IMG/VR virus record: IMGVR_UViG_3300042934_000306
Source of the DNA: a virus
Taxonomy: Duplodnaviria; Heunggongvirae; Uroviricota; Caudoviricetes
DNA length: 17,540 nt
Reading direction: 5' to 3' (one strand)
The notes under the pieces were generated by a model. That model worked only from the letters and a program-made list of their open reading frames with translations, was not told the DNA's origin and made no database searches. Positions 7,583 through 17,540 of this stretch are shown here, piece by piece; positions within the stretch are counted from its first letter, which is position 1; every line of letters begins with the position of its first letter. The translations under genes were made by a program, and so were the position numbers.

Positions 7583-8233
7583 TCACTCCACTACAAACCA
7601 GTCACAAGCCAGTAAATCATCAACATACGGCAACCAAACGCTGTCCATATTTTGTGCATCTTTCAATACGAAATGGTCACCATAAGGAACCTGAATGTCG
7701 TGTAAATTGACGCTCCCAGCGAGAACTAACCAGCAGAATTGCTTTTCGCCTTTCCACTCGCGTCGAGCTACATTTTTTCCTTCTTTCAGCCACATTAGCG
7801 CATCAGAAAAGTCGGCTGCTTCAAGGTCGATTTCCTCTTGCTGGGTAGTGGTACCACCAGCAGAAATAGTTACACTCCCGGTAATATTAATCATCACGCC
7901 GTTGTCATCCGTAATGATGACCGTGGTTCCATTTTCGGAGGCGTCGTTAACCAGGCCATAGCATTCCTCAAATGGTTTCTCCGGGGCATAGAACAGATAA
8001 CCGTTTTCATAAACGATCAGATACCCGCCAGTTTTTGGTCGGTGTTTTTGTAAAAACATTGCGTCAACACAAACTGTTGCCCCTTTTGGTTCAACGAGTT
8101 CAATGCAGCCCCAAAGTGGGGCATCAGTTACTCCGAAAATAACAACATTTTTGATTTTCGATGCACTAACGTTTTTGTGAGCTTTGTATTTGGGAAGGAA
8201 CTTAAAAAGCTCTTTCGTTGCCATGTAATTCAT
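7583..8233 (-). CDS. two-domain protein (216 aa): unknown N-terminal domain fused to a DUF2829/Tad2-like C-terminal domain
   Basis: AGGAAAGG SD before ATG 8233; C-terminal FSDALMWLKEGKNVARREW ... LPYVDDLLACDWFVVE fits the signature I associate with DUF2829; not verified by HMM. Confidence 0.5.
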   Translation of the reverse strand: MNYMATKELFKFLPKYKAHKNVSASKIKNVVIFGVTDAPLWGCIELVEPKGATVCVDAMFLQKHRPKTGGYLIVYENGYLFYAPEKPFEECYGLVNDASENGTTVIITDDNGVMINITGSVTISAGGTTTQQEEIDLEAADFSDALMWLKEGKNVARREWKGEKQFCWLVLAGSVNLHDIQVPYGDHFVLKDAQNMDSVWLPYVDDLLACDWFVVE

Positions 8234-12117: not shown

Positions 12118-13626
12118 TTATATATCCAGATCTGGCATTTCGATATCCGCCAGAACCTGATCTCGGAAAGTTGCCATTTCGGCACCAATATCTTCATTAG
12201 CAGGCACATAGTCCACCAGCATAGTGAAGCAGTAGGTATCCCATCGGTCAGGCGATTTGATGTTTAGCTTTTGCCGCATGTGCTCTTTGCGCATCATCGC
12301 CATTTTCCCTTCCTCATTCAGTAAAAAGGGGATTTTTGACGCTTGCTCTGCCGTTTTAGGGTCACTGTCTATCCGCATACGCCCTGACTTTATGGCATCA
12401 CGCGCCATAATATTTGCGTAGGCACGCTGATTAACAAATCGCTCCCTGTCTTTGTTCGCAAACATGGGTTTTCCCCACCGAATACGTACCGGGTTCGCAC
12501 CACGACGCACCAACTGCGCACACGTATCAGAACCAAAACCATCGGCATCAACCGCGATTGTTATATTCGGGTATTTTTCCGGCGTACATTCGTTATATAT
12601 GAAGTCAGCAAAGGCCAATGGGTCCATAGTGCCAGGCATCTCCATTACCTTAAAGTTAACAACGCGCCGCTTATCCCTGTGACCAGATACCTTGCAGATG
12701 TTGAGGACCGACTTATCTCGCCCATTACCAACGTCAGCCGTTGCCACCCATCCCCAGTTTTTCTCCAACAACACCTTGCGGCGAGCTGCGCGATCGCATT
12801 CATCACGACCAAGCAAATAGCCGTTAATTTCTCGTGGGAACTGACCAAGCACCTTGACCATGTACTCAATAGAATCGCGCCCGCCATATTCCAGAAGCTT
12901 CTGCTTGATGAATTGTGGTGTGACGAACGGTGATTCTTCCGAGTTAAGAACAATTGCTGTCCAGATCCCTTTCGGGTTGTCTGGGGTTTTTGCTTGAGAA
13001 TGGTGCGAATCGTAGAAATAACCACTTGGCCTTGTTGGCTGGGATAGCATCAACATCCGGTTATCTTCTTCAGTAAGAGCACCGGTCATTACGCCGATCG
13101 CCTTATCAGATATACCAGATGCTTCATCCAGAATTAGAAGCAAATGTGCCGCATGTTCCCCCGCCAGCGCTTCTTCGTTGCCGAGTCGATAACCTTTGCA
13201 GAGAACTTCCCAAATCCCCTTACGGGAGCGCTCATAAAACATGGTGTCAGAGAGGACAAAATAGGTCTGCAACCACCCATGACGCTTAACTGCATTCGCC
13301 CAATACTGTTTAACGTATTTGAATACGCCTGTTTTTACCTGGCCTATCTTGTTAGCAACAATGATGACACGGGCATCGGGGAACAGGATCATAAAAATCA
13401 ACAGCAACATCGCGGTAAGGGACGACTTCCCCGTTCCGTGTCCGGACGTGACGGTCGTCCTACTCCCCGTTTCCTGCACTGACTGAATGATCTGCTGCTG
13501 CTGGTGGGAGGGGAACATCCCAAAAATATCGACAACAGCCTGGGTAAAGTTGTAGCGGTATTTGATTACCATATCGCGCCAGCGTGGATCGCTGGTGACG
13601 CATTTAATCTTGCGCCCGCCAGCCAT
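12118..13626 (-). CDS. pacB: terminase large subunit (PacB-like)
   Basis: 502 aa; Walker A SGHGTGKSS, Walker B LLLILDEASG, C-terminal Asp-rich nuclease-like region (ATADVGNGRD, AVDADGFG); GGAGGA SD; TAATG coupling to pacA. Confidence 0.85.
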   Translation of the reverse strand: MAGGRKIKCVTSDPRWRDMVIKYRYNFTQAVVDIFGMFPSHQQQQIIQSVQETGSRTTVTSGHGTGKSSLTAMLLLIFMILFPDARVIIVANKIGQVKTGVFKYVKQYWANAVKRHGWLQTYFVLSDTMFYERSRKGIWEVLCKGYRLGNEEALAGEHAAHLLLILDEASGISDKAIGVMTGALTEEDNRMLMLSQPTRPSGYFYDSHHSQAKTPDNPKGIWTAIVLNSEESPFVTPQFIKQKLLEYGGRDSIEYMVKVLGQFPREINGYLLGRDECDRAARRKVLLEKNWGWVATADVGNGRDKSVLNICKVSGHRDKRRVVNFKVMEMPGTMDPLAFADFIYNECTPEKYPNITIAVDADGFGSDTCAQLVRRGANPVRIRWGKPMFANKDRERFVNQRAYANIMARDAIKSGRMRIDSDPKTAEQASKIPFLLNEEGKMAMMRKEHMRQKLNIKSPDRWDTYCFTMLVDYVPANEDIGAEMATFRDQVLADIEMPDLDI

Positions 13627-15487: not shown

Positions 15488-15880
15488 CTACCAGCGAGAC
15501 AAACGAACAACATGTTTCACTTTTGCGATCCACTTTCCGCGATAACTATTGATTACGGCCTGTGCCAGCTTCAAATTGGCTTCAAAATCAGCCTTACTAC
15601 CATCAGACTCCACCAGCATTCCTCCATCTATTTCTGGTAAACATAGATAATCCTGCTCAACCTGCAGCGGCATTGATGGCTCTCTGAATGGCGTTACTTG
15701 CTCTGCTTTCCAGCGAAATCTAACCCTCATCCCCCTGGTGGTCATTACTAGATAGCCTGTTATAGTGCTTTTATGGCCCACATCAGTACGCGTGGCATTG
15801 CATGACACGATCTTACAGTTAGCGATAGACCACTCCATATTGGTGGCCTGTTGAGTGCTTAATTTGGTAGTCCCGTACAT
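15488..15880 (-). CDS. hypothetical protein (130 aa)
   Basis: GGGAGG SD 7 nt before ATG 15880; ATGA overlap with the upstream gene. Confidence 0.5.
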   Translation of the reverse strand: MYGTTKLSTQQATNMEWSIANCKIVSCNATRTDVGHKSTITGYLVMTTRGMRVRFRWKAEQVTPFREPSMPLQVEQDYLCLPEIDGGMLVESDGSKADFEANLKLAQAVINSYRGKWIAKVKHVVRLSRW

Positions 15881-16455
15881 CAGAAAGCCTCCCAGTCAGT
15901 CGCGATTATATCCACACCAGTTGCAAACCAGTCTGTCTGCGCCTGTAAATCACCATTCATCATTACCAGGCGAGGCATCACCATCACATCGCACCCTTCC
16001 ACAATATCGAATGCCTCTTCCGGCAAGAATTCGAAGAGCTTTTCTTTGCTGCCAATGCTGCCACGGAACATCGATATATAGCTCCCTTTAGGCCATGATG
16101 TCCGCCGGGCATCAAGCCCTTTCATCATCCAGTAAAAAGCCGAGGAAAAAGGGATATTCTTTTTGCCAATGATTACATTATTCGCTTCTGTGTACTTCAG
16201 GAACTTAACTAACCTTACCATTGACTCGGATAACGCAACGTATGGCTCATGATTGATTGCTGACACGCTTACACCGTGCAATCCAACGCTTACCACTGTC
16301 ATATCGCCGCTCTGTGCGGTTTCGATATTGACGCCTTTGCGAACTAATGAGGCGTAAAGTTCCTCTCGCTTTTGGGTCCAGCGTTCCCGCTTCCCTATGA
16401 AGTCACTCAAAATGAGATCTTCTTCTGCATATGCGTTATCGTTCGCCATTAACAT
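15880..16455 (-). CDS. hypothetical protein (191 aa) with DUF2829/Tad2-like C-terminal signature
   Basis: GGAGA SD 5 nt before ATG 16455; C-terminal AFYWMMKGLDARRTSWPKG ... DWFATGVDIIATDWEAF parallels the C-terminus of the 216-aa protein at 7583..8233. Confidence 0.5.
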   Translation of the reverse strand: MLMANDNAYAEEDLILSDFIGKRERWTQKREELYASLVRKGVNIETAQSGDMTVVSVGLHGVSVSAINHEPYVALSESMVRLVKFLKYTEANNVIIGKKNIPFSSAFYWMMKGLDARRTSWPKGSYISMFRGSIGSKEKLFEFLPEEAFDIVEGCDVMVMPRLVMMNGDLQAQTDWFATGVDIIATDWEAF

Positions 16456-16909
16456 AACGTCTCCTTTTTACACGCGCGACCATCTCTCGGTTAAACCGAT
16501 AGAGATGTCGAAACTTCGTATTAATTAAGGGTTACAGCCTGAGCGGCTATATGATGAATTGAAAGGAGTTGTGGCGGTGGTGCCTCCACCTGCCAGGTCA
16601 GCCACGCCCGGCGACGACACTTATCAGAACCTCAATGAATGAAAATGGCTTCGTCACGAGCGCATAGCCGCAATTACCACAACGGAAACGGCGCTCGCGT
16701 TAATTAAACGCCTTTTCCTGTTGTGCGCCGTACTCTTCCGGCTGTCACACCGAATCGCCAGGATGGTGAGTCCTCGGTCCGACGATATGAACGGGGCTTG
16801 CACATTCCGGCTACCTGGTTTGTTGCCTGAGCTAGGGGAAAAGGTAACCCCTTTAACGTCACCAGACCGCTAACGACGCATGTGCCAGACGCCGTGTTAC
16901 AACCAAATA

Positions 16910-16985
16910 TGGTGGCCCCTACCGGACTTGAACCGGTGACCGTGCGATTATGAGTCGCCAGCTCTAACCACTGAGCTAAAGGGCC
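16910..16985 (-). tRNA. tRNA with CAU anticodon, closest to enterobacterial tRNA-Ile2 (lysidine-dependent); would also score as tRNA-Met
   Basis: Minus-strand sequence GGCCCTTTAGCTCAGTGGTTAGAGCTGGCGACTCATAATCGCACGGTCACCGGTTCAAGTCCGGTAGGGGCCACCA folds by hand into a canonical cloverleaf with encoded CCA. Confidence 0.85.
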
Positions 16986-16994
16986 AGATTACTG

Positions 16995-17123
16995 TTAATT
17001 CCGCTTACGCTTTTTGCCAGAACCGCGTAAGGCTTTTGCCGCTTGCTCGACCCCATATGCAACCACCAGCAAAAATAAAAATGTCCAACCAGGGTTCTTA
17101 TCGGCAAACGCCCAAAAATTCAT
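16995..17123 (-). CDS. small membrane protein (42 aa): one TM segment plus Lys/Arg-rich tail
   Basis: Hand-translated MNFWAFADKNPGWTFLFLLVVAYGVEQAAKALRGSGKKRKRN; AGGTGG SD 9 nt upstream; its ATG overlaps the stop of the upstream ORF (ATGA); ends 10 nt before the tRNA. Below the track length cutoff. Confidence 0.35.
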   Translation of the reverse strand: MNFWAFADKNPGWTFLFLLVVAYGVEQAAKALRGSGKKRKRN

Positions 17124-17356
17124 CACTTACAGCCACCTTGCATTTCCTTGGATAATTCATTGATTTTAGTGCTCAATAAGCAATCAAAATAAAGATAAAA
17201 CACAAAAGTAACGATAGTGCTTAAAGTGTCTGAAATTGCGTATTTCAGCTCAGGAAGCATGACAAAGCAGACAAATAGCGGAAGAAATAACTGCACTATG
17301 CACAGGCTCTTCTTCCACAACCATCTATATCTGAAGTCTGACAACAAAAACTCCAT
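17123..17356 (-). CDS. possible small hydrophobic protein (about 77 aa from ATG 17356)
   Basis: Track ORF 17123..17446 begins at a GTG with no SD; the internal ATG at 17356 also lacks a clear SD; AT-rich, two hydrophobic stretches. Kept only because the downstream small ORF is coupled to its stop. Confidence 0.2.
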   Translation of the reverse strand: MEFLLSDFRYRWLWKKSLCIVQLFLPLFVCFVMLPELKYAISDTLSTIVTFVFYLYFDCLLSTKINELSKEMQGGCK

Positions 17357-17540
17357 TGCTTGAAACTTTATTAGATTGCGGTGCCTGGTGCCTCCATGTG
17401 ACGTTAACCAGTTAACAATTAACGCCGGGATGTTTGACTTAACCACTAAGGAGGATTGTTTTAACTGTTCCGCGTGCGCTTAGCCGCATTCACCGCAATG
17501 GTAAGAGCACTTGGCTGGCTGGGCGGCGATGACGCCTGTA

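Follow-up and report, generated by a model that had tools for sequence, protein, structure and literature searches.

The closest described systems are the ban-region tRNA/tci operons of phages P1 and P7. In P1, the genes that follow the C1-controlled ban promoter are tRNA-Asn, tRNA-Thr, tciA, tciB, tciC, trnI, and ban, in that order, and trnI is annotated as "tRNA-ile2 (CAT), 89 pct identical to ileX"; statements on P1 gene order and annotation rest here on the GenBank record. In a genome-wide CRISPRi screen in P1, tciA, tciB, tciC, and trnI were all non-essential (PMC10695390). A published survey of P1-like plasmids lists tciABC among eight hypervariable regions (PMC9603915).

The window analyzed here (the whole stretch of 17,540 nucleotides) matched phages D6, P7, and P1 in sequence at this locus. 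Over its entire length, it was 99.9% identical to CP123702, a 92.6-kb Salmonella Mbandaka plasmid, and it shared 95–99% identity with many plasmids from E. coli that belong to the D6-like plasmid-prophage type. Judged by these matches, the window represents a D6/P1-like plasmid prophage of the E. coli/Salmonella type. A preliminary description made from the nucleotide sequence had reported a 42-aa ORF immediately upstream of a tRNA(CAU). Both were located by ARAGORN, Rfam, and the ORF list, and both are on the minus strand; the preliminary description gave no strand and did not recognize them as the known tciC-trnI pair of P1. We consider it likely that the locus is the tciC-trnI end of a D6/P1-type tRNA/cargo operon, with an AUA-reading phage tRNA-Ile2 and a dispensable TciC-family membrane peptide.

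The small ORF and the TciC family

The ORF occupies positions 16995–17123 on the minus strand (42 aa from the ATG, stop codon included in the coordinates) and its product is MNFWAFADKNPGWTFLFLLVVAYGVEQAAKALRGSGKKRKRN. An in-frame GTG at 17124–17126 gives a 43-aa version, the form found in GenBank records, and on the 99.9% identical plasmid the ORF is recorded as hypothetical protein WGN55833.1. A Shine-Dalgarno-like AAGGTGG, read from the sequence at 17133–17139 (minus strand) within the 3′ end of the upstream ORF, precedes the ATG by 9 nt and the GTG by 6 nt, in agreement with the good Shine-Dalgarno sequence first reported. Similar motifs are found at the equivalent site in D6 (AGGAA) and P1 (TAAGGA). 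The start codon overlaps the stop codon of the preceding gene, as TGATG in the window and P1 and as ATGA in D6. Such an overlap points to translation by coupling, and the ORF would be coupled to whichever cargo gene precedes it. Between the stop codon and the first base of the tRNA, a spacer was read from the sequence at 16986–16994 (minus strand); the adjacency of the two genes was described correctly from the outset, but the distance is 9 nt rather than the 10 nt originally given. D6 and two relatives (L010 and L011) have a spacer of 9 nt as well; that of P1 and P7 measures 3 nt.

The ORF is homologous to P1 TciC (35 aa, MGFWDFADKHPIVLVVIAGIVVGGIAGVIEALRKQ) and P7 Upf69.6, and all of these adjoin the same tRNA on its upstream side. 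The D6 homologue is an unannotated 36/37-aa ORF (MDFWTYIDKNPGWSLLFLLVIVYGVEQVAKNLRRRK), again directly upstream of the same tRNA. P1 TciC was linked to the window ORF only through its PHROG profile and the alignment. The profile, phrog_23152, matched residues 2–34 over positions 1–33 of 35 (E = 0.003, 18.2 bits), a match that is weak alone; in the alignment, D6-type sequences bridge the window type and the P1 type, with M1, F3, W4, D8, K9, and G24 invariant throughout. A tblastn search of a phage collection with the peptide recovered D6 alone, P1-type TciC having diverged beyond the reach of BLAST. When 5.8 billion proteins were searched with a profile, only 19 clusters of 29–45 aa were obtained, all of the P1, D6, or window subtype. 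By homology, then, the ORF is classed as a diverged member of the annotated, uncharacterized TciC family. Peptides of the window and D6 types are elsewhere unannotated or entered merely as "hypothetical protein."

The conserved motif, MxFWxFxDKxP, is followed by one helix and a basic tail. AlphaFold2, run with the family alignment, modeled helices at residues 3–9 and 11–34 and a disordered basic tail (mean pLDDT 81.5, ~90 over residues 1–30). The hydrophobic core covers ~14 residues, and the maximum of the Kyte-Doolittle 19-residue average is 1.44, under the usual cut-off of 1.6, versus 2.73 for P1 TciC. The earlier proposal of a single transmembrane segment with a basic tail is matched by the modeled helix and tail, but not by the hydropathy score. 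In the cell, the peptide would present a short N-terminal helix carrying the FWxFxDK motif, one hydrophobic helix, and a basic tail on the cytoplasmic side. The best reading of the ORF product is a putative accessory single-pass inner-membrane peptide that is dispensable.

An ORF of this size could instead be a non-functional open frame carried beside a conserved tRNA. Its length alone is not beyond chance, with 30 ORFs of at least 20 aa overlapping the same 1.5 kb; it stands above chance because it is conserved at the same position in P1, P7, D6, and other plasmids. The non-functional reading draws on the loss, frameshifting, or truncation of the ORF in many relatives, on a high non-synonymous fraction (11 of the 23 codons that differ between the window and D6 versions), and on a D6 reference record in which the ORF is not annotated. 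The family variants include one with a frameshift that extends its reading frame into the tRNA, a truncated one, and one in which 8 aa are duplicated. Given the non-synonymous changes and the frameshifted, truncated, and deleted versions, selection on the peptide looks weak. Against a non-functional frame, the three lineages are only 39–68% identical, yet in all of them the frame is open and the N-terminal motif invariant. DNA similarity to P1 ends exactly at the ORF stop codon by BLAST; the frame, the Shine-Dalgarno-like motif, and the start overlap are nonetheless retained in all three lineages, even where the upstream gene is unrelated, and the ORF is intact in four different upstream contexts. 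Variable sites also lean toward the third codon position (12, 5, and 19 at positions 1, 2, and 3, respectively, among four distinct DNA versions). Collectively, the conservation, the overlap, the position-3 bias, and the structural model argue for a real translated peptide, and we regard a non-functional frame as unlikely.

The preliminary description had also raised the possibility of a small membrane toxin or holin-like peptide. Such a protein, whether a toxin resembling those of type I systems or a lysis peptide, would suit the small size, single hydrophobic helix, and strongly basic tail, which resemble those of small membrane toxins and some holins, and the ORF lies within what appears in P1 to be an early, repressor-controlled operon. 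Other observations spoke against it. No holin, toxin, or defense family matched in Pfam, PHROG, NCBIfam, or PADLOC, and no significant match came from scans of the 43-aa ORF, the adjacent orf77, and P1 TciC with Pfam, NCBIfam, and PADLOC. (The sole family-scan match was between P1 TciC and the EssA model, with E = 0.032, below the cut-off.) An annotated holin and lysis protein are located at 81208–81980 of the near-identical plasmid, ~24 kb on the circular map from the ORF at 12418–12549. No antisense-RNA promoter-like site was seen on the opposite strand in a crude consensus scan of 16300–17540, and the ORF is coupled in an operon and not self-contained. Knock-down of tciC in P1 left plaquing unaffected, and many relatives have lost the gene cleanly. 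A toxin or holin function is thus quite improbable, and the suggestion was not upheld.

The variable cargo slot and its expression

In the window, the gene preceding the TciC-family ORF is orf77 (17123–17356, minus strand, from the ORF list), an orphan of 77 aa. This ORF has two hydrophobic segments, and its TGA stop forms the TGATG noted above together with the TciC-like ATG. It has no clear Shine-Dalgarno sequence, so its translation is uncertain. No family match was obtained for it with Pfam, PHROG, NCBIfam, or PADLOC; in the 5.8 billion proteins it was found in three clusters, all at least 94% identical and offering no functional lead, and its full-length region and arrangement are present in 14 PLSDB plasmids. 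BLAST break points define a 241-bp segment (17126–17366, no strand assigned) that stands in place of the tciA-tciB of D6, P7, and P1, with a G+C content of 37% versus 47% for the window. Beyond it, an upstream leader (17367–17540, minus strand) is shared with D6 (98%) and P7 (94%), where by BLAST it precedes tciA. An STnc100-like match in the leader (17377–17497) is sub-threshold, at 30.6 bits against an Rfam gathering score of 47.

The commonest arrangement among relatives is tciA-tciB-tciC. The window lacks both tciA and tciB, and the ORF does not occupy third place in such a cluster. This difference is one of context and not of homology, because other relatives also carry tciC without tciAB. 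In L010, orf77 is cut down to a 7-codon stub and tciC is intact; in L011, an SPFH-domain gene precedes a window-type tciC that is intact; and L012, a P1-type plasmid with ban downstream, has an SPFH gene and a 27-nt remnant of tciC. In many relatives, tciC has been cleanly lost while the tRNA stays. Across the sequences compared, the tRNA therefore appears as the fixed element of the slot and tciC as dispensable. The sole local novelty is the orphan membrane ORF, orf77, that replaces tciA-tciB. A slot in which TerB-like, SPFH, and orphan membrane genes replace one another may merit a search for defense or exclusion functions.

A scan of both strands from 16300 to 17540 (~1.2 kb) for sigma-70 promoters found none, although a consensus scan of this kind is crude. 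One weak promoter-like site lies far upstream, and a strong terminator-like hairpin precedes the tRNA cluster. Across the 23.9 kb of this locus in the near-identical plasmid, no site matched the P1 C1-operator consensus (ATTGCTCTAATAAATTT) with up to three mismatches. By analogy with the P1 gene order, we infer that a similar polycistronic RNA may be made here too. The TciC ORF and the tRNA would then be carried on one RNA, the ORF mRNA forming the 5′ leader of the tRNA precursor, and cleavage by RNase P would leave the TciC mRNA with a 3′ UTR of just 3–9 nt. After RNase P cleavage and 3′ processing, the host TilS would convert C34 of the tRNA to lysidine; IleRS would charge the lysidine-bearing tRNA, which would then read AUA. 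The reliance on a host enzyme had been predicted at the outset and fits the gene content of the element: the 99.9% identical plasmid carries an annotated glnS but no annotated tilS, and the tRNA would accordingly depend on the TilS of the host.

The proximity of the two genes permits a more elaborate scheme, in which TciC peptides are small inner-membrane effectors (they might, for example, exclude superinfecting phages or interfere with cell division or the envelope), their expression is physically tied to tRNA maturation, and orf77 acts here as the partner in place of TciA/TciB. In such a scheme, because the stop codon lies 3–9 nt from the first base of the tRNA, a terminating ribosome would compete with tRNA folding and RNase P, and the cleaved TciC mRNA would be left almost without a 3′ UTR. 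We hold this scheme to be distinctly doubtful.

The tRNA gene and the codons of the element

ARAGORN identified a single tRNA in the window, at 16910–16985 on the minus strand, with anticodon CAT and an encoded CCA. The Rfam tRNA model (gathering score 29) matched over its full length, model positions 1–71, at 64.7 bits. Neither ARAGORN nor Rfam (E up to 5) found a second, degenerate tRNA downstream. The gene is identical at 76/76 positions to trnI of P1 and to the P7 tRNA, and the D6 copy differs from it at two positions; this tRNA is not annotated at all in the D6 reference record. The element carries five tRNAs: Ile2(CAU), Arg(UCU), Thr(UGU), Ser(UGA), and Tyr(GUA).

Codon usage was counted over the 23,213 codons of the genes annotated on the near-identical plasmid and compared with 41 annotated E. 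coli chromosomal genes; the host baselines are samples of 49–61 kb and not the whole genome. AUA occurs at 11.8 per 1000 codons in the element (19.6% of Ile codons) versus 2.5 in the host (4.2%), an odds ratio of 4.8 (p = 5e-26). An annotation-free recount with ORFs of at least 150 aa gave 12.2 versus 3.3 per 1000, so that AUA is ~3.6–4.8 times as frequent in the element as in the host samples; the published genome-wide value for host AUA is ~4 per 1000, which would bring the ratio down to roughly 3. In the recount, AUA ranked highest of all 61 codons in enrichment, with AGG, ACA, and UCA next in order. Four of the five tRNAs match these four codons: Ile2, Arg-UCU (AGG), Thr-UGU, and Ser-UGA.

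The tuning to AUA that had been suggested for late genes was borne out for the element as a whole (11.8 versus 2.5–3.3 per 1000). A preference specific to late genes was rejected, the late/structural genes and the remainder being alike (11.5 versus 12.0 per 1000, p = 0.72). Since the tRNAs cover the most enriched codons, the set most likely helps to decode rare codons ending in A throughout the element, and not in late genes alone. In the P1 CRISPRi screen, trnI was non-essential for plaque formation (PMC10695390), and with both trnI and tciC non-essential, any benefit would be conditional or small. The element is a tidy case of a temperate phage-plasmid whose tRNA set fits its four most host-atypical codons.

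A different role for the tRNA-Ile2 would be that of a spare, kept mainly to sustain translation when host tRNAs are depleted or cleaved during infection, for example by anticodon nucleases of the host or by phage-induced turnover of host RNA, with the codon match secondary. Many unrelated phages, Stx phages among them, carry genes of this type; the tRNA remains constant while the other cargo of the slot changes; and it differs from the host copy at eight positions, all of which would suit a spare. The anticodon loop, however, is identical to that of the host and would offer no escape from a loop-specific nuclease, and a one-to-one fit of tRNAs to the four codons with the highest enrichment would be expected under codon supplementation. 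We know of no nuclease that targets tRNA-Ile2, and a role mainly as a spare seems improbable beside supplementation of decoding.

The assignment to tRNA-Ile2, which the preliminary description had made as the closest match, was corroborated by several lines of comparison. The tRNA is identical to the E. coli chromosomal tRNA-Ile(CAU) at 68/76 positions (8 differences) and to the elongator tRNA-Met genes metT/metU at 55/77 (22 of the 77 aligned positions differ). A match to it was present in 5426/5426 complete E. coli genomes, and the chromosomal matches examined were annotated tRNA-Ile. Identical plasmid copies bear the RefSeq label tRNA-Ile, and the RefSeq annotation pipeline uses tRNAscan-SE. 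Version 2.0 of that program has dedicated models that tell the three CAU tRNA classes apart, and the RefSeq label comes near to the check with isotype-specific models that had been proposed beforehand. In E. coli, TilS recognizes C4-G69 and C5-G68, positions held in tRNA-Met by U4-A69 and A5-U68 (PMC2500205, PMC11947777). The acceptor stem of the window tRNA (GGCCCUU/AGGGGCC) contains both of the TilS-positive pairs. TmcA, which acetylates tRNA-Met to form ac4C, requires C27-G43, C30-G40, and G44 (PMC2500205); none of the three is present in the window tRNA, which has G27.A43, G30-C40, and C44. U16 is missing, as in tRNA-Ile2.

The eight substitutions relative to the host tRNA fall at position 26, in G27.U43 (now G27.A43), at position 44, in two T-stem pairs, and in U6-A67 (now U6.G67). 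Both T-stem changes are compensatory (49-65 from G-C to A-U and 51-63 from U-A to C-G), which maintains the cloverleaf and indicates a fold under selection. The activity of E. coli TilS can drop with changes in the anticodon stem (PMC11947777), and given the G27.A43 mismatch in place of the host G27.U43, efficient lysidinylation is not guaranteed. Taken together, the comparisons support a tRNA of the Ile2 type, not an elongator tRNA-Met; the window tRNA is predicted to carry lysidine at position 34 and to be charged with isoleucine.

That the gene is instead an elongator tRNA-Met adding AUG-decoding capacity is extremely improbable: the ARAGORN label tRNA-Met and the listing as "methionine" or tRNA-Met in the papers on pYU39_89 and a P7-like mcr-1 plasmid rest on the CAU anticodon alone, and the 68/76 versus 55/77 identities, the TilS-positive pairs, the absence of all three TmcA-positive elements, and the RefSeq label all stand against them. 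The G1-C72 pair excludes an initiator tRNA.

Comparison with known systems

The relevance of the locus is mostly one of annotation hygiene, in that the tRNA is mislabeled as Met and TciC peptides go unannotated. Papers on plasmids and phages, like ARAGORN, repeatedly list this same tRNA as tRNA-Met. The feature is real but ordinary and already described, and nothing points to a new kind of system.

Among the known counterparts of the peptide, P1 TciC (AAQ14046), P7 Upf69.6, and phrog_23152 share with it the MxFWxFADKxP motif, a hydrophobic helix, and a basic C terminus, as well as the position directly before trnI and a start codon that overlaps the stop of the gene before it. The window peptide differs from P1 TciC in its sequence (~39% identity), in a longer and more basic tail (GSGKKRKRN), and in a shorter hydrophobic core that contains E/Q residues. 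In P1, tciC is preceded by tciA (TerB-like) and tciB (DUF3927), whereas the window has the orphan orf77 there. On the other side of the pair, P1 and P7 have ban (a dnaB homologue) next after trnI; in the window, the genes 3′ of the tRNA in the direction of transcription are orf6, orf5, lpa, pacA, and pacB, as in D6.

The trnI genes of P1 and P7 share with the window tRNA the same 76 nt, the same place just after tciC, and the same encoded CCA. The E. coli ileX/ileY tRNA-Ile2, a TilS substrate, is likewise 76 nt long with the shorter D-loop; it has in common with the window tRNA the CAU anticodon, an identical anticodon loop, C4-G69, C5-G68, and the anticodon-stem pairs 28-42 to 31-39. Matches to the window tRNA were found in 1170 phage records. 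Stx-converting lambdoid phages and large virulent phages carry CAU tRNAs ~80–86% identical to it (85.5% for the copies in Stx-converting phages, whose genes of this type include ileZ of 933W), often alongside Arg(UCU) tRNAs for rare codons and often mislabeled as tRNA-Met; the phage families and genomic contexts of these carriers differ from those of the window. By its sequence, the tRNA is identified as the known P1 trnI, within a widespread class of phage-borne tRNA-Ile2 genes, and the locus as a whole is the already catalogued pair of a tciC-family gene and an AUA-reading isoleucine tRNA found in plasmid prophages of the P1/D6 type.

Genes and gene variants in the slot upstream of tRNA(CAU)

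In P1, P7, and D6, tciC is preceded by tciA and tciB; in the window, the tciA-tciB position is taken by an orphan 77-aa ORF (orf77; 17123-17356, minus strand) with two hydrophobic segments. The ORF lies within an insert (17126-17366) of lower G+C content (37%). No clear Shine-Dalgarno sequence was found for orf77 and searches for family matches returned none. Only three orf77 protein clusters were recovered, all near-identical, and the complete orf77 arrangement is present in 14 PLSDB plasmids. In the near-identical plasmid CP123702, orf77 is left unannotated.

Many P1-type plasmids carry a gene for an SPFH-domain protein in the slot upstream of the tRNA (NZ_CP027575, 1501-1640; NZ_AP022217, 1501-1760). 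In some plasmids this gene is accompanied by an intact window-type tciC, for which PGAP gives no annotation, and in other SPFH-carrying plasmids tciC is deleted to a 27-nt 3′ remnant. The TciC family also includes a frameshifted variant (P0010) whose alternative C-terminus runs into the tRNA gene, a variant with an 8-residue duplication within the hydrophobic helix (P0013), and a truncated form (P0017). These three variants point to relaxed constraint on the TciC peptide.

Leader, downstream spacer, and Tad2-like protein

The leader located downstream of tRNA-Ser and upstream of the cargo genes is conserved (98% with D6 and 94% with P7) and contains a match to the STnc100 small RNA family (17377-17497, minus strand), whose score of 30.6 bits (E = 1.6e-4) falls below the Rfam gathering threshold of 47. 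On the other side of tRNA(CAU), a 454-nt spacer (16456-16909, minus strand) separates the tRNA from the next gene. The 186 nt directly downstream of the tRNA (16724-16909) share ~91% identity with P1 and P7, despite the different genes that follow (ban in P1 and orf6 in the window). The complete spacer contains a long hairpin and folds better than shuffled versions of itself (z = -2.8); neither an Rfam family nor a second tRNA was detected in it.

The gene after the spacer encodes a 191-aa homologue of D6 orf6 (15880-16455, minus strand), with a C-terminal domain resembling Thoeris anti-defence 2 (Tad2-like, PF11195; E = 1.1e-9, which passes the Pfam cut-off). Another protein (7583-8233) is annotated as DUF2829, probably the older name of PF11195. 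These domain assignments suggest that the element may carry anti-defence cargo.

The tRNA set and its upstream region in comparison with D6 and P1

Both tRNA(CAU) and the tciC-like ORF are present in the sequence of phage D6 (NC_050154; 3310-3385 and 3395-3508, respectively), and both are unannotated in that record. In the D6 tRNA copy, a T-stem pair is disrupted by a C-to-A change, and the D6 Ser, Thr, and Asn tRNAs are recorded on the strand opposite to that assigned by ARAGORN.

Besides tRNA-Ile2, the element holds four more tRNAs, Ser(UGA), Thr(UGU), Tyr(GUA), and Arg(UCU), all on the same strand and just past the right end of the window (CP123702, 20925-21714). Together with Ile2, this set matches the four codons that show the greatest enrichment over the host (ATA, AGG, ACA, and TCA). 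D6 and P1 differ in having an Asn tRNA where the window-type element has Tyr and Arg. Upstream of the cluster, CP123702 has a strong hairpin resembling a terminator (GCCCATCTTCGGGTGGGC, then a T run; 22181-22198) and one sigma-70-like site (22886-22914), both on the minus strand. This region may represent a small RNA gene; in P1, the "dicF-like region" occupies roughly the same place.
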